From sequence record PX994957.1: DNA of 64,000 nucleotides, one strand, 5' to 3'. The DNA is from a phage. Position numbers and translations under genes: made by a program. The notes beneath the pieces were generated by a model. That model saw only the letters and a program-made list of their open reading frames with translations, was not told the origin of the DNA and did not search any database. Position 1 is the stretch's first letter; each line of letters starts with the position of its first letter. Shown piece by piece: positions 14,465 to 58,777 of the stretch.

Positions 14465-14506
14465 ATTATTTTCCTCTTTAACTATCAGCAGTATTGCCGA
14501 TAGTTG

Positions 14507-17884: not shown

Positions 17885-20800
17885 ATGGCCGAGATTAAAA
17901 GAAAGTTCAGAGCAGAAGACGGTCTGGACGCAGGTGGTGATAAAATAATCAACGTAGCTTTAGCTGATCGTACCGTAGGAACTGACGGTGTAAACGTTGA
18001 TTACTTAATTCAAGAAAACACAGTTCAACAATATGATCCAACTCGTGGATATTTAAAAGATTTTGTAATCATTTATGATAACCGCTTTTGGGCTGCTATA
18101 AATGATATTCCAAAACCAGCAGGAGCTTTTAATAGCGTACGATGGAGAGCGTTACGCACTGATGCAAACTGGACAACTGTTTCGTCAGGACCTTATCAAT
18201 TAAAATCAGGCGAATCGATTTCAGTTAACACCGCAGCGGGTAATGACATTACATTTACTTTGCCATCTTCTCCAATTGATGGTGATACTATCGTTCTCCA
18301 AGATATTGGAGGAAAACCTGGAGTTAACCAGGTTTTAATTACAGCTCCGGTACAAAGCATTGTAAACTTTAGAGGTCAACAAGTACGCTCAGTACTAATG
18401 ACTCATCCAAAATCACAGATAGTTTTAATTTTTAGTAATCGTCTGTGGCAAATGTATGTTGCTGATTATAGCAGAGAAGCGGCAGTTGTAACACCAGCAA
18501 GTCTTTATCAAGCGCAATCAAACGATTTTATCGTACGTAGATTTACTTCTGCTTCAGCAATTAATATTAAACTTCCTAGATTTGCTAATCATGGGGATAT
18601 TATTAATTTTGTTGATTTAGATAAATTAAATCCACTTTATCACACAATTGTTACCACGTATGATGAAACAACTTCAGTACAAGAAGTTGGAACTCATTCT
18701 ATTGAAGGCCGTACATCTATTGATGGTTTCTTAATGTTTGATGATAATGAGAAATTGTGGAGATTGTTTGACGGGGATAGTAAAGCACGTTTACGCATTA
18801 TAACGACTAATTCTAATATTCGCCCAAATGAAGAAGTCATGGTATTTGGCGCGAATAATGGAACACCCCAAACAATTGAACTTCAGCTTCCAACTGATAT
18901 TTCTATCGGTGATACTGTTAAGATTTCCATGAATTATATGAGAAAAGGACAAACAGTTAAAATCAAAGCTGCCGGTGAAGATAAAATTGCTTCTTCAGTT
19001 CAATTGCTGCAATTTCCAAAACGTTCAGAATACCCACCTGAAACTAAATGGGTGACTGTTCAAGAATTAGTTTTTAATGGCGAAACCAATTATGTTCCAG
19101 TTTTACAGCTTGCTTATATTGAAGATTCCGATGGAAAATATTGGGTTGTACAGCAAAACGTTCCAACTGTAGAAAGAGTAGACTCTTTAAATAATTCTAC
19201 TAGAGCAAGATTAGGCGTAATTGCTTTAGCTACACAGGCTCAAGCTAATGCTGATCTAGAAAATTCTCCACAAAAAGAACTGGCAATTACTCCAGAAACG
19301 TTAGCTAATCGTACTGCTACAGAAACTCGTAGAGGTATTGCAAGAATAGCAACAACTGCGCAAGTAAACCAGGATACCACATTCTCTTTTGCAGATGATA
19401 TTATCATCACTCCTAAAAAGCTGAATGAAAGAACAGCTACTGAAACTCGTAGGGGTGTCGCTGAAATTGCTACGCAGCAAGAAACAAACACAGGAACAGA
19501 TGATACAACCATCATTACTCCTAAAAAGCTTCAAGCTCGTCAAGGTTCTGAATCATTATCTGGTATTGTAACTTTTGTATCTACTGCAGGTGCTACTCCG
19601 GCTTCTAGCCGTGAATTAAATGGTACAAATGTTTATAATAAAAACACTAATAACTTAGTTGTTTCACCTAAAGCATTGGATCAGTATAAAGCTACTCCAA
19701 CGCAACAAGGTGCAGTAATTTTAGCAGTTGAAAGTGAAGTAATTGCTGGTCAAAGTCAAGAAGGATGGGCAAATGCTGTTGTAACGCCAGAAACGTTACA
19801 TAAAAAGACATCAACTGATGGAAGAATTGGTTTAATTGAAATTGCTACGCAAAGTGAAGTTAATACAGGAACTGATTATACTCGTGCAGTCACTCCTAAA
19901 ACTTTAAATGACCGTAGAGCAACTGAAAGTTTAAGTGGTATAGCTGAAATTGCTACACAAGTTGAATTCGACGCAGGCGTCGACGATACTCGTATCTCTA
20001 CACCATTAAAAATTAAAACTAGATTTAATAGTACTGATCGTACTTCTGTTGTTGCTCTATCTGGATTAGTTGAATCAGGAACTCTCTGGGACCATTATAC
20101 CCTTAATATTCTTGAAGCAAATGAGACACAACGTGGTACACTTCGTGTGGCTACACAAGTTGAAGCTGCTGCTGGAAAATTAGATAATGTTTTAATAACT
20201 CCTAAAAAGCTTTTAGGTACTAAATCTACCGAATCGCAAGAAGGTGTTATTAAAGTTGCAACTCAGTCTGAAACTGTGGCTGGAACGTCAGCAAACACTG
20301 CTGTATCTCCAAAAAATTTAAAATGGATTGTACAGAGTGAACCTACCTGGGCAGCTACTACTGCGATAAGAGGTTTTGTTAAAACTTCATCTGGTTCAAT
20401 TACATTTGTCGGTAATGATACAGTCGGTTCTACCCAAGATTTAGAACTGTATGAGAAAAATAGCTATGCAGTATCACCATATGAATTAAACCGTGTATTA
20501 GCAAATTATTTACCGTTAAAAGCAAAAGCTGCTGATAGTAATTTATTGGATGGTCTAGATTCATCTCAGTTCATTCGTAGGGATATTGCACAGACGGTTA
20601 ATGGTTCACTAACCTTAACCCAACAAACGAATCTGAGTGCCCCTCTTGTATCATCTAGTACTGCTACGTTCGGTGGATCAGTTTCAGCAAATAGTACATT
20701 AACTATTTCTAATACTGGAACAGCAACTCGATTGATTTTTGAGAAAGGACCTCAAACTGGAACAAACCCAGCCCAAACGATGACTGTTAGAGTGTGGGGA

Positions 20801-30538: not shown

Positions 30539-31174
30539 TCACAGTTCAGATGCTACAGTGATTACAGCTTCAATGTTTTCTGCCGAGCGTTTAATGTCAA
30601 GATACACATTACCGTTTTTAGCGATTTTACATGACATTCCGATATCAGTAAATTTCTGAATATGATGTTCCATCATTTTGTATCCAAAAATTCGCATATT
30701 TCCATTGTTGTTAATTTCAAAATTACGAATTCCGTGAGTACGTTTTTCTAAAATAGCGAGATAGTTACTACGATAAGTTTCAACCTTTTTAAGAACAAAT
30801 CCATTTTCATCTAAAAGTTTTAACATGAGGTCTTTATCTTCTTCCATATCAGAAGTAATTTCGCGAGCTTTACGAGTTGCTCGTTTTTTCAGTAGTTCCG
30901 GAGCATTTTCCTGTGCGTATAAAGTTGCTGCATTTGAAATAATATCCTGAGCTTCACCAGTAATGATTAATCCATCACCTGATTTCTCCACCAGGCCTTT
31001 TTTAATCAACACCCCAATATTACTATTAACTACTGCGTTACCTAAATCTGGATGCACCTCACGAACTTCTGCAGCTGTAATGAAATCTTTCTTAGCAATA
31101 GTAATTAAAATCGCAGCAGTTTTTTCATTCAGAACATCGTTAGAAGCTTTGATGATGTAAGTTACTTTAGACAT
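30539..31174 (-). CDS. motA: middle-transcription activator MotA (intact)
   Basis: 211 aa; matches recalled T4 MotA. Confidence 0.93.
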   Translation of the reverse strand: MSKVTYIIKASNDVLNEKTAAILITIAKKDFITAAEVREVHPDLGNAVVNSNIGVLIKKGLVEKSGDGLIITGEAQDIISNAATLYAQENAPELLKKRATRKAREITSDMEEDKDLMLKLLDENGFVLKKVETYRSNYLAILEKRTHGIRNFEINNNGNMRIFGYKMMEHHIQKFTDIGMSCKIAKNGNVYLDIKRSAENIEAVITVASEL

Positions 31175-31215
31175 TTTCTAATCTCCGTAATTCTGTATCA
31201 GTAGTTGATAGTTGT

Positions 31216-31245
31216 ATAGTACCACAGTATGCTTTGGTTGTAAAC
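31216..31245 (-). promoter_or_regulatory. sigma70-type early promoter for motA with conserved leader box
   Basis: minus strand GTTTAC-N18-TACTAT; leader box gtagttgatagttgtatagtacca. Confidence 0.6.
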
Positions 31246-31271
31246 CGTTTTGTGAAAAAAAAAATTAAAAT

Positions 31272-31297
31272 AAAAAAGGGAGAGCCTCGGCTCTCCC
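31272..31297 (-). terminator. rho-independent terminator (copy A)
   Basis: GGGAGAGCC-GAG-GCUCUCCC followed by U6 on minus strand. Confidence 0.7.
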
Positions 31298-31302
31298 TAA
31301 AA

Positions 31303-31452
31303 TTACTGCATGACTGTGATAACTGTCATGATAACACGTTGAATTCCGAACGCAAGAAGACCTCCTGCTACGGCTGGAACAACACCTAAACCCGCCAGTA
31401 AAATGCTACCGGATACTAATGCAGCGCTTGTAATACCTATGAATGGACTCAT
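31303..31452 (-). CDS. small hydrophobic membrane protein, 49 aa (copy A)
   Basis: own translation MSPFIGITSAALVSG...; ATG overlaps upstream stop (ATGA). Confidence 0.5.
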   Translation of the reverse strand: MSPFIGITSAALVSGSILLAGLGVVPAVAGGLLAFGIQRVIMTVITVMQ

Positions 31453-32174
31453 TTGATTTCCTCTAAATCTTTAGTGTATTCGGTAACTACATTAGTAGTT
31501 TTCCAATATTCGTTTTCTTCTTTCTTAGCTTTAGCTTCTTCAGCAAGTTTCTTTGCTTCGTCGGAAGTCATATGAAAAATATTCATTCCAACTAGTTTAT
31601 CAACATAAGAAGAATACATATCGATTTTCGAAAGTTCTTCGGTCAGTTCTTTGCGAGTTTTACCCTGCACAACGATTTCACCTGAAATTACTTTCTTAAT
31701 GAAATGTGCCTTGGCAAAGGCTAAACGAAAAGCTGACTCAGTTTCTTTGATTTTGTTATCAATTCGTTTTTGGACATAAGTTTTACGAACTTCAACAAAG
31801 TCTTTAATTAAATCAAGTTTTAACATGAGGTCTTTATCTTCTTCCATATCAGAAGTAATTTCGCGAGCTTTACGAGTTGCTCGTTTTTTCAGTAGTTCCG
31901 GAGCATTTTCCTGTGCGTATAAAGTTGCTGCATTTGAAATAATATCCTGAGCTTCACCAGTAATGATTAATCCATCACCTGATTTCTCCACCAGGCCTTT
32001 TTTAATCAACACCCCAATATTACTATTAACTACTGCGTTACCTAAATCTGGATGCACCTCACGAACTTCTGCAGCTGTAATGAAATCTTTCTTAGCAATA
32101 GTAATTAAAATCGCAGCAGTTTTTTCATTCAGAACATCGTTAGAAGCTTTGATGATGTAAGTTACTTTAGACAT
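31449..32174 (-). CDS. chimeric ORF: MotA residues 1-120 fused in frame to gp52 residues 322-442
   Basis: 241-aa ORF; N-terminal half identical to motA, C-terminal half identical to the gene 52 3' end; lies on the duplication junction 31816/31817. Confidence 0.8.
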   Translation of the reverse strand: MSKVTYIIKASNDVLNEKTAAILITIAKKDFITAAEVREVHPDLGNAVVNSNIGVLIKKGLVEKSGDGLIITGEAQDIISNAATLYAQENAPELLKKRATRKAREITSDMEEDKDLMLKLDLIKDFVEVRKTYVQKRIDNKIKETESAFRLAFAKAHFIKKVISGEIVVQGKTRKELTEELSKIDMYSSYVDKLVGMNIFHMTSDEAKKLAEEAKAKKEENEYWKTTNVVTEYTKDLEEIK

Positions 32175-32215
32175 TTTCTAATCTCCGTAATTCTGTATCA
32201 GTAGTTGATAGTTGT

Positions 32216-32245
32216 ATAGTACCACAGTATGCTTTGGTTGTAAAC
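32216..32245 (-). promoter_or_regulatory. duplicate copy of the motA early promoter, now upstream of the chimeric ORF
   Basis: identical to 31216-31245. Confidence 0.6.
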
Positions 32246-32271
32246 CGTTTTGTGAAAAAAAAAATTAAAAT

Positions 32272-32297
32272 AAAAAAGGGAGAGCCTCGGCTCTCCC
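32272..32297 (-). terminator. rho-independent terminator (copy B)
   Basis: identical to 31272-31297. Confidence 0.7.
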
Positions 32298-32302
32298 TAA
32301 AA

Positions 32303-32452
32303 TTACTGCATGACTGTGATAACTGTCATGATAACACGTTGAATTCCGAACGCAAGAAGACCTCCTGCTACGGCTGGAACAACACCTAAACCCGCCAGTA
32401 AAATGCTACCGGATACTAATGCAGCGCTTGTAATACCTATGAATGGACTCAT
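32303..32452 (-). CDS. small hydrophobic membrane protein, 49 aa (copy B)
   Basis: identical to 31303-31452. Confidence 0.5.
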   Translation of the reverse strand: MSPFIGITSAALVSGSILLAGLGVVPAVAGGLLAFGIQRVIMTVITVMQ

Positions 32453-33777
32453 TTGATTTCCTCTAAATCTTTAGTGTATTCGGTAACTACATTAGTAGTT
32501 TTCCAATATTCGTTTTCTTCTTTCTTAGCTTTAGCTTCTTCAGCAAGTTTCTTTGCTTCGTCGGAAGTCATATGAAAAATATTCATTCCAACTAGTTTAT
32601 CAACATAAGAAGAATACATATCGATTTTCGAAAGTTCTTCGGTCAGTTCTTTGCGAGTTTTACCCTGCACAACGATTTCACCTGAAATTACTTTCTTAAT
32701 GAAATGTGCCTTGGCAAAGGCTAAACGAAAAGCTGACTCAGTTTCTTTGATTTTGTTATCAATTCGTTTTTGGACATAAGTTTTACGAACTTCAACAAAG
32801 TCTTTAATTAAATCAACTACGTTATCGTAAACTTGTAGTTTTCCTTTCTCATTAATAACCGTAATATTCTGAGAACGACGCTCAATCAACCCGAAGTCTT
32901 TCATAATTTTTGCATGGCGTTCTTCTTCGTTATCGCTCAAAGAATATTCTTTACGGAATTTAACTTTGAATCCAAAACCATGCTCACCACAAGCATCATC
33001 CCATGTAATGAAGCCTTTATCTTCAAGTGGGTCTAAGATTTTACTCACATAAGTTTCACGATCATACTTATACGGAATCTCAGTGATATGCATTTGAGTT
33101 CGTGAAGTAAACTTATATGTTCCACGAATTTCATATTGGCCATCAATCTCAACGACTTCACCACGAAATTCTGGGAATTCTACCTTCGGTTTAGTTACTT
33201 TCTTTCCTTGAAGAGCTTGTAATACAGCTTTCTTAACAGAAGAAACACTATGAGGAAGAATGTAAGTTGCATAACCAGTTGCAATACCGGAAACACCATT
33301 AAGAAGAACAGTAGGAATAATAGGCAAATAGAAAGCAGGCGGAATGTGTTCTTTATCTTGATGTACCGGAGCATATTCAGTATCTTTATATACGTTATAG
33401 AAATTTTTACTTACACGAGCAAAAATATAACGACTTGCTGCTGCTTTTTGGACGGTACGAGAACCAAAGTTTCCTTGACCATCTAACAGAGGAAAATTAT
33501 TATTCCAAGTGTTAGCCATCAAAGCACCTGCGTCTTGCGCAGAGTTTTCACCATGATGATATCCAAGGTCCGCTACACCACCTGCAATAGAAGCGAGTTT
33601 GTGAAACTTATCTTTATTTCCTCGTGCCAAATCAAGAGCTCGAGCAATAACAAATCGTTGAACTGGCTTAAATCCGTCAATCATATTTGGAATGGCACGA
33701 TTTTCAACCGTGTACATAGCATAAGCCAATGCTTCATTATCAATGATACTTTTTAAATCGCGATTATTCAGTTGCAT
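32449..33777 (-). CDS. 52: DNA topoisomerase II medium subunit gp52 (GyrA-like, intact)
   Basis: 442 aa; catalytic-Tyr region AASRYI; T4 synteny. Confidence 0.93.
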   Translation of the reverse strand: MQLNNRDLKSIIDNEALAYAMYTVENRAIPNMIDGFKPVQRFVIARALDLARGNKDKFHKLASIAGGVADLGYHHGENSAQDAGALMANTWNNNFPLLDGQGNFGSRTVQKAAASRYIFARVSKNFYNVYKDTEYAPVHQDKEHIPPAFYLPIIPTVLLNGVSGIATGYATYILPHSVSSVKKAVLQALQGKKVTKPKVEFPEFRGEVVEIDGQYEIRGTYKFTSRTQMHITEIPYKYDRETYVSKILDPLEDKGFITWDDACGEHGFGFKVKFRKEYSLSDNEEERHAKIMKDFGLIERRSQNITVINEKGKLQVYDNVVDLIKDFVEVRKTYVQKRIDNKIKETESAFRLAFAKAHFIKKVISGEIVVQGKTRKELTEELSKIDMYSSYVDKLVGMNIFHMTSDEAKKLAEEAKAKKEENEYWKTTNVVTEYTKDLEEIK

Positions 33778-54109: not shown

Positions 54110-54310
54110 ATGGTACAAAAATTAATGGCACTTGTTAATGCCATAAAAGGTAATAAAAAACGTATAGCTTTTACTATTTCTGCTATGGTAGGAATTTTAC
54201 TCTGGAACTTTATTCTATCACCTGTTGCAATTGCGCATGGTATTAATATTCCAGTAGTTACTCTTGATACATTTGTAGATTTAGCATTTGCTTTAGTTGG
54301 GTTAATTTAA
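54110..54310 (+). CDS. small predicted membrane protein, 66 aa, on the opposite strand between genes 56 and 61
   Basis: ATG preceded by AAGGAGGA RBS; two hydrophobic segments; fills the gap exactly. Confidence 0.5.
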   Translation: MVQKLMALVNAIKGNKKRIAFTISAMVGILLWNFILSPVAIAHGINIPVVTLDTFVDLAFALVGLI

Positions 54311-55335
54311 ATCTTAGCATATTTAGATAGCCGCATTTTAGCCATCAACCCCTGGGCAATATTATTTTTCATATATTCCATAATTTGTTCAGGGGTTGCA
54401 CCTTCCTTTCTAATCATATCATTAACATCTTTTGATTTCCAGGGAGATTTATCCCAAAACATAACCCTTTCTCCTGCATCAACTAATTTAGTCATTCGCT
54501 TAATAGTGTCAGGATGACGAGGTTCATTATCTAAGACCCACACACGCCTATCTTTAAATGGAACAACTTCTAGGTCTAATTGACCACCCGTAATAGCTAT
54601 ACCATTTTCAATAAAAAGTGAATCTATAGGTCCTTCTAGAACATATACATCGCCATCTTTAACTCGTTCAACACCGTAAATTTTTGTTGCCTCAGGATAA
54701 GCTTTAATGGTGATATATTTTTGAGGAGCATCTTTCTTTAATGCACGTCCTTGAAAAGACTCAGCTTTTCCATTAGCATTATAAATTGGAATAACAAGAC
54801 GAGGCTCAGAAATTTCCTTTTTGTATGTTCCCGGTGCTATGCTATTAACTAATTTAGGCCATTCGGTTGTAAACCAAAGATATTTCCATTTATCCTTTGG
54901 AATACAACGAGCTTTTACATATTTTATAATTGGATGGTCTTCCGCCAGTTTATCTAATCTAACACACGACGGAAGAGATTTAATTATTTTCTTCTCAGGT
55001 TGTTTAGGAAGTTCTTTAGGTTTTTCTACTGGACGACTTTTACCTTTTTCTTTTCTTATTTCAAAGATATACTCACGATATAAATCGGGTTCAAACTCCT
55101 TTAAATATATTCCGATTGGTGCATGATAGTTACAGTTATAACAATGAATATTTCCTTCATTATTATCACCATAATACCATCCACGAGCTTTATTCTGATC
55201 GGTTTTTGAATCTCCACAAACAGGGCATCTAAACCGCAATTTAAAAGTTGAACTATTATTTACTTGTGTGAATTTAGGTAAATGAGCTAATGCACGATAC
55301 GCAAACTCATTATCAATCCAAGGTATTGATGACAT
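54307..55335 (-). CDS. 61: DNA primase gp61
   Basis: 342 aa; zinc-ribbon CPVCGDSK ... CYNC; Toprim region. Confidence 0.93.
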   Translation of the reverse strand: MSSIPWIDNEFAYRALAHLPKFTQVNNSSTFKLRFRCPVCGDSKTDQNKARGWYYGDNNEGNIHCYNCNYHAPIGIYLKEFEPDLYREYIFEIRKEKGKSRPVEKPKELPKQPEKKIIKSLPSCVRLDKLAEDHPIIKYVKARCIPKDKWKYLWFTTEWPKLVNSIAPGTYKKEISEPRLVIPIYNANGKAESFQGRALKKDAPQKYITIKAYPEATKIYGVERVKDGDVYVLEGPIDSLFIENGIAITGGQLDLEVVPFKDRRVWVLDNEPRHPDTIKRMTKLVDAGERVMFWDKSPWKSKDVNDMIRKEGATPEQIMEYMKNNIAQGLMAKMRLSKYAKI

Positions 55336-55503
55336 TTTTACTCTTCTTTTTCTTTAGATTCCTCTTTCTTCTTTTTAGGAATCTGTTCAGGACCTTTATT
55401 TACTACAGCGCCCGACGTTGTTCCAGTAGAGATATTTTCAGGATTACCACCTGAATCTCCAGCGACCATATCTTCTTTGATAAATTCTTTATATGTTTTC
55501 ATA

Positions 55504-55860
55504 TTAACCTCTATTCATAAAAGCATTAAAAATTTGGTCATCAATAGATGGAATAGCAACCTTTTCGGCATCATTTAGCAAATCATTAATTTCATCAGAT
55601 AGCATAACACATGTGCCTTTATTTCCTGTAATTGTTACTGCGCAATTACGAACGTTTTCTTTATCAAATTTTAGGTTAATATTTTCGTAGTGAAAATCCT
55701 TTAATGCCGAATATATCTTTAAAATGAAATTGTCTTTTACTACAATAAACCCAACCTCACTATTAAAACGTGGTTCATGGAAACTGTAATAAACCTTTTC
55801 ATCTATAAAATCGTATGAAATTTTTTCCATTTTTAAATATGAAAATTCAGAACTATACAT
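55504..55860 (-). CDS. hypothetical protein, 118 aa (61.1 position); shares a C-terminal tail with the next ORF
   Basis: ORF track; tail SIDDQIFNAFMNRG. Confidence 0.55.
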   Translation of the reverse strand: MYSSEFSYLKMEKISYDFIDEKVYYSFHEPRFNSEVGFIVVKDNFILKIYSALKDFHYENINLKFDKENVRNCAVTITGNKGTCVMLSDEINDLLNDAEKVAIPSIDDQIFNAFMNRG

Positions 55861-55861
55861 A

Positions 55862-56503
55862 TTAACCTTTATTCATAAAAGCATTAAAAATTTGATCATC
55901 AATAGAAACATTTACTTTAGACTGTTTTTCTGATGGTAATTCATATCCACATATTACAATTTTGTGATCAATATCAAAATACACAGAAGCAATATGATTA
56001 ATGATGTTTTCAGTAAAGTCTAAATCAACATCAATATCTTTTTGACCACAGCCCAAAGGATAAATAATGCGAGTAATTCGATTATCTTTAACAAATATTC
56101 CACCGACATACTCTGTGCTGCGTTTAAAGTTTACACGTTTCCTAAATGAAAAATATTCAGGTTCTTTATGAGCCCGACTCATAGGACACAATGAGTAGCT
56201 AGAATAAGAGATGTCAAATCCTACACCTTCAATATGAGCCAACGCGTCATGATTAAACCAATTATAATCATATGCCAAATCCATTATATTGTAATATGTG
56301 AAAGGCACCGGATTAACATCATGTGTTGTACCTTTAAAATCTGCCCAGGCAACGATTTCGTTATCTTTAACAATTACAAAAATTGTGTCAATAAGATATC
56401 CACGGTTATTTTCATCAGGCGTTATATTATAACATTGTGCATCAGGAAATTTACCGTATTTAAACGGTGGATTTTTGTGCATATAATAAATCATATTATT
56501 CAC
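55862..56503 (-). CDS. hypothetical protein, 213 aa (61.2 position)
   Basis: ORF track; tail SIDDQIFNAFMNKG. Confidence 0.55.
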   Translation of the reverse strand: MNNMIYYMHKNPPFKYGKFPDAQCYNITPDENNRGYLIDTIFVIVKDNEIVAWADFKGTTHDVNPVPFTYYNIMDLAYDYNWFNHDALAHIEGVGFDISYSSYSLCPMSRAHKEPEYFSFRKRVNFKRSTEYVGGIFVKDNRITRIIYPLGCGQKDIDVDLDFTENIINHIASVYFDIDHKIVICGYELPSEKQSKVNVSIDDQIFNAFMNKG

Positions 56504-56789
56504 CTGTGATTTCGGTTACGATATTTTTGTTATTAAAGTTTTTATCGCAATACAGAACATAATTATACTGCATTACACCACCAAACTTAAGTTGTTTTTG
56601 CACTTCAGCTTTCATTTTAGGACGATCGCGCTCAACAATATTCATAATATCCGCTTCAATTTGAGTTTCAACTTCAGTCTGATCTGCAGTCATAGACCAT
56701 TCACACAAGTCTTTATCATATCCTGCCATAGCAGGCTGAGCAGCACAAGAAGCCAAAGTAAAAATTGTAGCAAAAATAAATTTTTTCAT
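56496..56789 (-). CDS. sp: secreted/periplasmic 97-aa protein, probably spackle (61.3)
   Basis: 97 aa with cleavable signal peptide; size and position as T4 sp. Confidence 0.55.
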   Translation of the reverse strand: MKKFIFATIFTLASCAAQPAMAGYDKDLCEWSMTADQTEVETQIEADIMNIVERDRPKMKAEVQKQLKFGGVMQYNYVLYCDKNFNNKNIVTEITGE

Positions 56790-56849: not shown

Positions 56850-57107
56850 CTATTTTAAAACTTCTGCATAATCACATGTTACAAACTGTTTCTCTAGCTT
56901 AACGATCTTACGAAAGTATCTTTTGCATTGACGAATCTGCCGTTTCGTAGGACGTACAGCAAACTTAATAAATTCCACTCGACCAAATGGAGGGCTTTCT
57001 TCTGCCGGAATATCTAACACCAATTCCCACGTATCCGCAATAAGTGCTTTGAATTGAGTATTTTTCCTGACGTTATACGGAGTAGGTTTAAATAAAACAA
57101 TATGCAT
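56850..57107 (-). CDS. hypothetical basic protein, 85 aa (61.4 position)
   Basis: ORF track. Confidence 0.5.
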   Translation of the reverse strand: MHIVLFKPTPYNVRKNTQFKALIADTWELVLDIPAEESPPFGRVEFIKFAVRPTKRQIRQCKRYFRKIVKLEKQFVTCDYAEVLK

Positions 57108-57108
57108 A

Positions 57109-57291
57109 TTATCCTCGGCAATCTACTTCACATACTTTCTTGTCATCAATGAAAGCTTTAACTAATGCTTTATTAACTTCAGCATATTGAGTAGTAGCCC
57201 ATTGAACGTCATCTTTCATCATTGTGGTTTCTTTAGTAAACATGCTTTCATTCTTAAACCACCCCATAAAAACTACCTTTACCAATTCCAT
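57109..57291 (-). CDS. dmd: Dmd antitoxin (discrimination of mRNA degradation, 61.5)
   Basis: 60 aa; size and position immediately before gene 41 as T4 dmd; sequence fits recollection. Confidence 0.6.
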   Translation of the reverse strand: MELVKVVFMGWFKNESMFTKETTMMKDDVQWATTQYAEVNKALVKAFIDDKKVCEVDCRG

Positions 57292-57321: not shown

Positions 57322-57350
57322 CTATACCATAGTCTTGTCAGTTTGTAAAC
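57322..57350 (-). promoter_or_regulatory. sigma70-type early promoter with CAAGACTA/TAGTCTTG palindrome over the -10
   Basis: minus strand GTTTAC-N18-TATAGT. Confidence 0.55.
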
Positions 57351-58777
57351 TAAAATTTTAATTCATTTGCCAAAGCATCTAACTGAGCTCGAGTGGATTC
57401 ATTTCTTTGATAGCGATTCTGTTCAGCCTGAATCTGTTGTGAACCTGCTACTTCACTCACTTCAGTTGGAGTAGAATCTTGTTCAATTTCTACCCATTTT
57501 TGATTTCCTTTTTGAACACCCATCAAAAACTTATTCCACTTATTCTTATCACCATATCGTGATTTGATTTGCTTAATAAGTTGTTGTTCAGCAGCTGCTA
57601 GCTCCTCGGTTTCAATGACCGCAAGCATAAAATCAGCTGTTGCTGGAAGACCAGCAGATTCTGCAATATCGCTCATGTTAACATCGGAAGAGTCCCAAGC
57701 TTGTTTACCGACCTGTGCTGCAGTCCAAAGAACAGTTTCGGTTTCAACAGCCAGAGCACGCAATTCCTCTGCGATAGCTTTAACAGTTGTGTAACTATTT
57801 TCTGAATAAACTCTAATGCGGCAAGATTTACAAATACCTAGATAGTCGACAATAATGATTGTTGGAACAAAATTCTTCTTGAGCTTCAATTCATTCAAGA
57901 GAGACCTGAATGTGTTAGCATCTGCCCCACCAGTGGGATACTGTTTAACGATTAAACGACCAAGAGTAGATTTCTCACGCCATTTTTCCATTTTTCCTTT
58001 ATACTCAGCGTAAGAAATATGCCCATCATCAATGTCATCAAGAGAAACATCAAGCATATTAGCATCAATACGCTTAGCACAGACTTCTTCTGCCATTTCC
58101 ATGGAAATGTAAAGAACATTATGTCCGAGCTGCAAATAATCTGCTGCCAATGAACAAAGTCCTAATGATTTACCAACGTTAACGCCAGCCATTAAAACGT
58201 TCAGTGTCCCAGTCTCAGCTCCGCCTTTAGTAATTTTGTTTAGAATTCTGAGTTTAAATGGAACCTTACGAGCTTTATTCATATAAGATAGCCAACGTGC
58301 TTCGTAGTCATCCATCCAATCATGACCAACGTAACTATCAAATGAAATTGATAATGCTTGGCGCATGATGTCAGGAATAGCACCAACGTCCGGCATTTTC
58401 TTATTTCGTTTTTCCGGAGGAAGCTCAGCATTAGTTTGAATTTCGATTATTTTAGACGTAGCATTAAACATCGCCCTTTGCTGAACATATTTTTCTGTTT
58501 CTTTTACTAACCAGCTGTGGTCTTCCGGAGAATCAGCTAGTTTTGAAATAAGTGTTTTTACACCAGAATATTCTGTTTCAGTAAATGAACTATTTTCTAA
58601 TGCAACATTTAACGCATTAATAGATGGAACGCTATGGTACTCGTTAACATGAGATTTAATTAATTTGAACGTATTTTTAGCTGGACCACTTTCAAAATAT
58701 TCTGAATCCATATATGGCCAAACTTTTGAAAAATAAGCTTGATCAAATATGAGATGAGAAAGAATAATTTCTACCAC
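57350..58777 (-). CDS. 41: replicative DNA helicase gp41 (DnaB-like)
   Basis: 475 aa; Walker A GVNVGKS; T4 synteny. Confidence 0.93.
   Translation of the reverse strand: MVEIILSHLIFDQAYFSKVWPYMDSEYFESGPAKNTFKLIKSHVNEYHSVPSINALNVALENSSFTETEYSGVKTLISKLADSPEDHSWLVKETEKYVQQRAMFNATSKIIEIQTNAELPPEKRNKKMPDVGAIPDIMRQALSISFDSYVGHDWMDDYEARWLSYMNKARKVPFKLRILNKITKGGAETGTLNVLMAGVNVGKSLGLCSLAADYLQLGHNVLYISMEMAEEVCAKRIDANMLDVSLDDIDDGHISYAEYKGKMEKWREKSTLGRLIVKQYPTGGADANTFRSLLNELKLKKNFVPTIIIVDYLGICKSCRIRVYSENSYTTVKAIAEELRALAVETETVLWTAAQVGKQAWDSSDVNMSDIAESAGLPATADFMLAVIETEELAAAEQQLIKQIKSRYGDKNKWNKFLMGVQKGNQKWVEIEQDSTPTEVSEVAGSQQIQAEQNRYQRNESTRAQLDALANELKF

Follow-up and report, generated by a model that had tools for sequence, protein, structure and literature searches.

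Two adjacent minus-strand ORFs in a 64,000-nucleotide stretch of phage DNA (sequence record PX994957.1; the whole stretch is referred to here as the window) both end in SIDDQIFNAFMN(R/K)G, and the DNA encoding these ends is almost the same in both. The question raised by this locus is what has made, or kept, the two tails alike. An earlier sequence-only reading suggested recent gene conversion or the modular exchange of a C-terminal tail between neighbouring accessory genes. The analysis presented here leads us to a composite answer that we consider probable: the two genes are AdfA paralogues, the tail is maintained by selection on the protein, recombination homogenises its DNA copies and the repeat serves as a substrate for gene insertion and deletion.

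The genome from which the window derives is that of a Tequatrovirus (T4-like). The 1.5 kb surrounding the tails is 99.2% identical to Escherichia phage AugustSocin and 96–98% identical to RB51, RB68, AR1 and wV7. Comparison with these relatives identifies the genes (Table 1). The two ORFs had been taken for 61.1 and 61.2; the upstream one is indeed 61.2 (adfA), but the 118-residue ORF is of the RB32ORF033c type (hereafter ORF033c), which the RB51 annotators labelled 'similar to gp61.2', and the true 61.1 is the next gene downstream. Annotated relatives start adfA at the ATG at 56494, giving 210 residues, while the mechanical ORF list starts it at a GTG at 56503. From sp to 61.1 a single base separates successive genes in the layout TAA-T-ATG, the sp/adfA junction included. 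The interval between sp and 61.1 is a slot for 0, 1 or 2 AdfA-family genes, and this genome holds two.

Table 1. Features of the sp–61.1 region and its surroundings (window coordinates)
Feature	Position	Strand	Description
Gene 41	57350-58777	minus	Helicase
dmd	57109-57291	minus	
61.4 / tifA	56850-57107	minus	
sp / 61.3	56496-56789	minus	Spackle; conserved left neighbour of the cassette slot
adfA / 61.2	55862-56494	minus	Anti-DarT factor A, 210 aa; Pfam PF23813; 'anti-DarT factor A' in PV857777
Repeat copy A	55858..55906	minus	Last 14 codons of adfA (SIDDQIFNAFMNKG), TAA, one base, ATG of the ORF033c-type gene
RB32ORF033c type (ORF033c)	55504-55860	minus	118 aa; short AdfA paralogue; phrog_4122; RB51 annotation
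Repeat copy B	55500..55548	minus	Last 14 codons of the ORF033c-type gene (SIDDQIFNAFMNRG), TAA, one base, ATG of 61.1
Gene 61.1	55338-55502	minus	54 aa; conserved right neighbour; repeat copy B ends with its start codon
Gene 61	54307-55335	minus	Primase

The shared DNA is a direct repeat of 49 nt, identical at 47 positions, with a start-to-start distance of 358 nt. Shuffling the 64-kb window 100 times with its dinucleotide composition preserved gave an expectation of 0.00 matches at three or fewer mismatches, which rules out the low-complexity coincidence that the sequence-only reading had named as the outcome that would speak against it. In gene sense the repeat reads TCT ATT GAT GAC/T CAA ATT TTT AAT GCT TTT ATG AAT AGA/AAA GGT TAA T ATG, the two mismatches being AGA/AAA (Arg/Lys) and the synonymous Asp pair GAC/GAT. 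Identity ends sharply at the Ser codon on the 5′ side. The near-identical DNA and the 14 common C-terminal residues noticed earlier are thereby confirmed; the repeat was, however, too narrowly described as a 3′ module of the two ORFs, since beyond the last 14 codons it runs through the TAA stop and one further base to the ATG of the next gene. A Shine–Dalgarno sequence lies within each copy, a weak AAAGG in copy A (55866-55870) and AGAGG in copy B (55508-55512). The adfA/61.1 junction of T4 matches window positions 55498-55548 at 100% (positions 1-51 of the query 55498-55552).

Other repeats occur elsewhere in the window. A perfect tandem duplication of 1002 identical nucleotides with a period of exactly 1000 (30815-31816 and 31815-32816) lies in the region of motA and gene 52 (topoisomerase); a 3001-nt query corresponds to about 2002 nt in the closest relatives, which are thus without the extra copy, and the duplication could be either an assembly artefact or a genuine segmental amplification. 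An exact 158-nt repeat (1-158 and 500-657, 499 nt apart) lies in the cd/31.1/31.2/31 region, where relatives are 158 nt shorter. A family of 48–74-nt repeats (families D2/D3; GATAGTTGTATAGTACCA...TGTAAAC...) at 14495, 31203, 32203, 35339, 35827, 44023 and 63029 looks like the strongly conserved T4 early-promoter consensus on the opposite strand; these early-promoter-like repeats lie away from the 49-nt repeat.

Membership of the Pfam AdfA family is set by a gathering score of 27 bits, which both genes exceed. The adfA product matches PF23813 over its full length (E = 1.4e-136, 453.1 bits), and ORF033c scores 34.1 bits over profile positions 113-211 only. ORF033c belongs to phrog_4122 (E = 7e-73) and adfA to a separate PHROG, 3781, the two of which hit each other. 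BLASTP aligns the two products at 34% identity over 106 residues. With the tails removed from both alignments, hhalign still pairs ORF033c residues 21-76 with AdfA residues 111-171 (E = 0.0015), and a Smith–Waterman comparison against shuffles gives P = 0.003. These comparisons lend modest support to homology of the bodies beyond the tail. ORF033c is about half the length of AdfA, is without the AdfA N-terminal domain and corresponds to the C-terminal half. Its dN/dS among orthologues is 0.13–0.33, a sign of purifying selection, and it is therefore a real gene. The suggestion of modular tail exchange between neighbouring accessory genes thus needs to be amended in one respect: the exchange, if such it was, did not join otherwise unrelated genes, as the Pfam match to positions 113-211 and the tail-less alignment indicate. 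AdfA itself contains two copies of a [FI]-[FV]-[IV]-V-K-D-N-x-I hairpin motif, at residues 39-48 and 133-142, and the type II body of phage VR20 (see below) resembles the AdfA N-terminal half (shuffle P = 0.001); these sequence similarities suggest that AdfA may be an internal duplication or fusion of two single-domain units.

The tail is not a peculiarity of this pair but a family-wide invariant peptide. A search for the tail in other phage proteins, as had been proposed, yielded genes from 30 loci with three body types. All follow sp immediately, in the early-gene island of the Tevenvirinae, and they come from Tequatro-, Mosig-, Dhaka- and Gaprivervirus as well as from metagenomic T4-like contigs. 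Type I is AdfA (208–216 residues; Tequatrovirus, Mosigvirus). Type II is ORF033c-like (117–125 residues; Tequatrovirus, Gaprivervirus, metagenomic T4-like phages) and includes one member, P0025, with a body identity of only about 20%. Type III (122–146 residues from the first Met, 145 as annotated for VR20) occurs in Dhakavirus and Gaprivervirus, with C6, VR20 and ABTNLsp5 as examples. Every family member recovered ends in [ST][IVT]DDQIFNAFM[NK][RK][GD], with DDQIFNAFM unvarying in four or more T-even genera. A type III gene and a type II gene, each with its tail, stand in tandem in VR20 and in the related contig L015, like the pair in the window. A census of 50,697 phage records located the tail at 910 places, spread over 710 records; 299 records had the ORF033c body and 487 the adfA body.

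Wider searches enlarged the family little. Word-indexed protein searches returned close relatives only, and a profile search centred on the tail added nothing but truncated gene calls of the AdfA family, with no new body type. HMMER against 1.84 billion representative proteins gave seven hits, five of which are T4-like phage loci or AdfA fragments, and found no family member outside the sp-adjacent phage slot; the hit P0022 (119 aa) has the same sequence as the ORF033c-type gene of L015, and a weak repeat match in a 1658-residue protein (E = 9.5e-4) was taken as spurious. A 41-residue AdfA C-terminal fragment from a 574-bp contig (P0024), named 'anti-DarT factor AdfA family protein [Xanthomonas pisi]', probably comes from T-even phage DNA that contaminated a bacterial assembly.

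An invariant peptide might by itself account for similar DNA, and the most durable of the alternatives is that protein-level purifying selection alone has acted on tails that have been independent since an ancient duplication, with T4 codon bias supplying the likeness of the DNA. The invariance of DDQIFNAFM in all members is what this reading predicts, and every tail codon is indeed the preferred A/T-ending one. Selection on the protein is also visible between orthologues: ORF033c tails have a dN of 0–0.06 and a dS of 0.34 (Elenatom) and 1.43 (VR20), comparable to the body dS of 0.50 and 2.06 for the same phages, so that the tail nucleotides are not specially constrained. On the evidence of these rates, the constraint on the tail is on the protein and not on the nucleotides. 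The paralogues in the window behave otherwise. Their tail dS is 0.15, against 1.63 for the bodies and 0.34–1.43 for the orthologous tails, and at identical residues with synonymous codons the same codon is used in 11 of 12 cases in the tail and in 9 of 24 in the aligned bodies (Fisher p = 0.002), although with a tail of only 14 codons the error on both the dS values and the codon tests is wide. Under the codon usage of the window, at least 11 of 12 identical tail codons have a probability of 0.008, a test that corrects only on average for the raised chance identity of preferred A/T-ending codons. The DNA identity thus goes beyond what protein conservation predicts, as the idea of recent gene conversion requires, and points to recent homogenisation of the paralogous tails by recombination or gene conversion. 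Selection alone is already disfavoured by these comparisons and we consider it improbable, with the qualification that selection and conversion acting on the same 49 nt are not fully separable with 14 codons.

Comparison across genera is consistent with homogenisation by recombination. Paralogous tails within one genome differ on average at 3.0 of 49 nt and same-type tails across genera at 6.5 of 49, in samples that are non-independent and with GC bias as a possible confounder. The Gaprivervirus tails (GC about 0.39–0.40) share GC-richer synonymous codons, and part of the clustering of tails by genome could be mutation bias. All 49 positions agree between the adfA tail of T4 and the ORF033c tail of RB14. 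The two tails of L015 differ at 7 of 49 positions, and homogenisation is therefore not universal. None of the collected loci yielded a chimeric tail from which a crossover could be placed exactly. The locus is visibly a mosaic: Kha5h has an ORF033c 99.4% identical to that of the window, but over the 5′ part of adfA the identity falls to 76%. The first ~290 nt of adfA (window 56201-56494) exist as two alleles, window/RB51 and T4/Kha5h, about 75% identical to each other, the 3′ parts being about 93% identical; each 5′ allele goes with a corresponding variant of the final ~25 nt of sp, which implies a recombination breakpoint inside adfA.

The gene content of the slot varies in nature. Four states are found: both genes, adfA only (T4), ORF033c only (RB14, T2) and neither (RB6). 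Relative to the window, ECP52 and T4 are shorter by exactly 358 bp, which is one repeat period and corresponds to ORF033c plus one repeat copy. RB14 and C2-3 are without 624 bp (adfA) and keep TAGAGGTTA[A/G]TATG after sp (also given as TAATTAGAGGTTA[A/G]TATG). This RB14-type junction is not derivable from the window type by simple microhomology deletion; a deletion between 7-nt TGAATAA repeats was considered and rejected, its predicted product mismatching the observed TAATTAGAGG. In RB6, which has neither gene, the empty site contains TAGAGGCTAATATG. By these alignments the repeat marks the loss and gain of cassettes. Two T2 records, MH751506 (18086-18380) and LC348380 (tail at 18030-18083), contain an ORF033c-type gene 96.6% identical to that of the window. 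Decay is seen as well: in Elenatom (L026 1165-1787) adfA is broken into two short ORFs with the tail DNA intact, and 33-residue ORF033c remnants (MLSDEINDLL...; P0030-P0032) have been called in several T4-like genomes, for example phage FL12, so that pseudogenisation does occur in the slot. On a metagenomic T4-like contig (L031:4340-4400) the tail ends AGA GGC TAA and is followed immediately by a second AGAGGCTAATG before the next gene; the Shine–Dalgarno/stop element is thus present twice in tandem, as if the copies belonging to the cassette and to the empty site had both been kept.

These junctions bear on a further alternative, which we judge very improbable, namely that the sequence of the 49 nt is itself constrained as a nucleic-acid element. 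It might then be a structured RNA, a site of regulation, a signal for translational coupling or a target of a nuclease or of recombination. Its final ~13 nt (AGAGGTTAATATG) comprise Shine–Dalgarno sequence, stop and start, and they persist in the empty RB6 site and in the adfA-less RB14 and C2-3; only this part has an obvious nucleic-acid role. The Arg/Lys difference, moreover, tracks the downstream gene: six two-copy Tequatrovirus genomes were examined, all of them with AAA (Lys) in the upstream copy and AGA (Arg) in the copy next to 61.1, and single-copy Tequatrovirus tails are always of the 61.1-adjacent AGA form. This pattern fits deletion between the repeats and fits equally well a selective advantage of AGAGG, the stronger ribosome-binding site, in front of 61.1. 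The upstream 36 nt do not behave as such an element, their synonymous positions varying freely between genera. An RNA structure is rejected in that none of four junction versions folded significantly (z −0.13 to +1.97), and copy A has no counterpart of the weak hairpin in copy B. A regulatory cassette fares no better: a scan for promoters and terminators found the repeat free of terminators and of any credible promoter on the gene strand, the sole promoter-like match that overlaps it being a weak 9/12 on the plus strand (55477-55505), opposite to the genes.

The remaining alternative is true module shuffling, in which a portable C-terminal tail has been joined to unrelated bodies, ORF033c being one of the resulting chimeras. 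It draws on type III, whose members carry the tail on bodies without significant sequence similarity to AdfA or ORF033c (hhalign E = 0.11–0.14; shuffle P = 0.03–0.75); in the C6 member, ORF33, the Pfam match is confined to the last 14 residues. Yet the bodies of the window pair are homologous, type III shares a G-x-[FI]-[LIV]-V-[KD]-[DS]-[ND] hairpin motif and Foldseek aligns the BFVD model of a type III protein from VR25 with the ORF033c model (E = 3e-4, TMq 0.55), in a match that includes the identical tail and has a high r.m.s.d. We consider module shuffling highly improbable, and even less likely than a constrained nucleic-acid element. A relation of type III to the AdfA N-terminal domain was also considered; the resemblance in KxPxAQxY and the hairpin is suggestive and not significant. 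A homing-endonuclease or transposable insertion can be dismissed, since the interval between sp and 61 holds only the two AdfA-family genes and 61.1, with no endonuclease or transposase gene, and the repeat search returned no notable inverted repeat of the kind that would form the termini of an insertion.

The account that we favour, in which selection keeps the tail peptide and recombination homogenises its DNA, would work as follows. Selection on the protein would hold the peptide constant while synonymous sites drift between genera. In AGA GGT TAA T ATG the last two codons, the stop and the start also serve the next gene, as its ribosome-binding site and coupled start. The near-identity of the DNA copies, both within a genome and between the alternative cassettes of different Tequatroviruses, would arise by homologous recombination, a mechanism that we infer, in the form of gene conversion or unequal crossing-over among co-infecting T-even phages. 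The tail would act as part of a conserved right flank (tail, 61.1 and 61) that is homogenised among co-infecting Tequatroviruses, with the bodies to its left as alternative or additive cassettes, and the 49-bp direct repeats, 358 bp apart, would provide the substrate for loss or regain of the ORF033c cassette.

Structure prediction gives some indication of what the tail may be. The AlphaFold2 (AF2) model of ORF033c (mean pLDDT 83.9) consists of a five-stranded antiparallel sheet (8-64), a helix (67-78), a strand (84-87) and a second helix (89-100), followed by a low-confidence linker (102-104) and a final helix (106-115) with a pLDDT of ~60. The AdfA model is weaker (mean pLDDT 63) and ends in a helix at 198-207. 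The tail is accordingly predicted, at a low local confidence (pLDDT about 55–64), to be a short amphipathic helix tethered to the folded body by a variable linker. A sequence search of the PDB found no solved structure for the family, and a Foldseek search of BFVD matched family members only and no other fold. Helix 67-78 of ORF033c (KENVRNCAVTIT) aligns with an AdfA segment (TENIINHIASVY) that includes the equivalent of residue 164 in the RB69 protein. At this position the window adfA has His (TENIINHIAS, aligned to the Mosigvirus-type NINRIAS), and ORF033c has Cys73 instead of His and so differs from the neutralising allele.

That residue has a known role. AdfA, the product of a characterised anti-defence gene (LeRoux et al. 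2022, as cited in PMC11825919 and PMC9391042), binds DarT1, and residue 164 of the RB69 protein decides binding and specificity (PMC11825919). The published experiments on DarT1 binding and neutralisation concern AdfA of RB69 and T4; what has been published on the mechanism of AdfA comprises these two points only. In T4 adfA is dispensable for DarTG1 resistance, that task being performed by AdfN (30.3), and T2 is described as a phage that by nature has no adfA homolog (PMC11825919). The counter to DarTG2 is tk.4/AdfM (bioRxiv 10.1101/2025.11.20.689424). We found no paper that mentions ORF033c. It would most plausibly be a single-domain toxin binder of the AdfA type with a different specificity.

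The invariant amphipathic helix may, we infer, be needed for the common activity of the family, presumably anti-toxin function, for instance as a common contact or docking element with the body setting specificity. A more specific proposal, which at present seems rather unlikely, is that the DDQIFNAFM helix is the common functional element of a set of toxin inhibitors whose interchangeable bodies determine which DarT or other ADP-ribosyltransferase is recognised, that ORF033c is a second anti-toxin factor and that tail and junction form a homology arm. If this were true, the helix might insert into the active or DNA-binding site of the toxin or dock on a conserved partner, ORF033c would be an overlooked anti-toxin factor in about 300 T-even genomes including T2, and tail plus junction would be a built-in homology arm for swapping specificity cassettes by recombination. 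The tail also bears a superficial resemblance to the clamp-binding ends of gp43 and gp55, which on the sequences compared is a lead only. A gp45 sliding-clamp motif S-L-D-F-L-F/Y (ASLDFLFG in gp43, PSLDFLYEAND in gp55) was rejected, S-I-D-D-Q-I-F of the tail sharing S-[IL]-D alone, and even that part is not invariant (TTDDQIF in P0025, AIDDQIF in L015).

Independently of that proposal, the most conserved part of the AdfA family is a C-terminal helix of 9–14 residues on very divergent bodies, which offers a concrete element to mutate. The short paralogue has been overlooked, in that T2, the phage described as having no adfA homolog, carries ORF033c.

Comparison with known systems places the locus among several partial parallels. 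The closest is AdfA itself: the upstream gene is adfA (Pfam PF23813, T4 61.2) with the His allele, and ORF033c, which passes the Pfam threshold, occupies the same slot and ends in the same tail; it differs in being about half as long, in having no N-terminal domain and in the replacement of His by Cys. Gene conversion between tandem paralogues offers a second parallel, with a short near-identical tract in otherwise saturated paralogues and, as in concerted evolution, tails that tend to be closer within a genome or genus than between orthologues. Here, however, the boundaries of the tract are exactly those of a strongly selected peptide plus a gene junction.

The PeSL elements of T4-type phages, which Arbiol and colleagues reportedly described in 2010, are mobile regulatory cassettes, with promoter-early stem-loops that flank ORFs in hyperplastic regions. 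The likeness lies in short conserved sequences at gene boundaries that allow recombination to shuffle small early genes. The repeat in the window, in contrast, is coding sequence plus Shine–Dalgarno, stop and start, with neither an early promoter nor a significant stem-loop, and we reject a cassette of the PeSL type on both counts (plus-strand 9/12 match only; z −0.13 to +1.97).

The dmd–tifA 'anti-TA island' of T4 undergoes amplification and deletion by recombination at short repeats (Srikant et al., eLife 2022, PMC9391042). It lies in the same neighbourhood (41-dmd-tifA-sp-adfA-61) and shows the same repeat-bounded indels and variable gene content. Its repeats are chance microhomologies of 6–10 bp brought into play by laboratory evolution, whereas the slot described here has a conserved 49-bp coding tail and junction in natural genomes. 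A tail apparently kept alike by recombination is ordinary for this variable T-even region, will not surprise a T4 specialist and refines the existing picture; beside the laboratory island, the locus stands as a natural example in T-even phages of a coding tail and junction serving as a boundary for the gain, loss and exchange of anti-defence cassettes.
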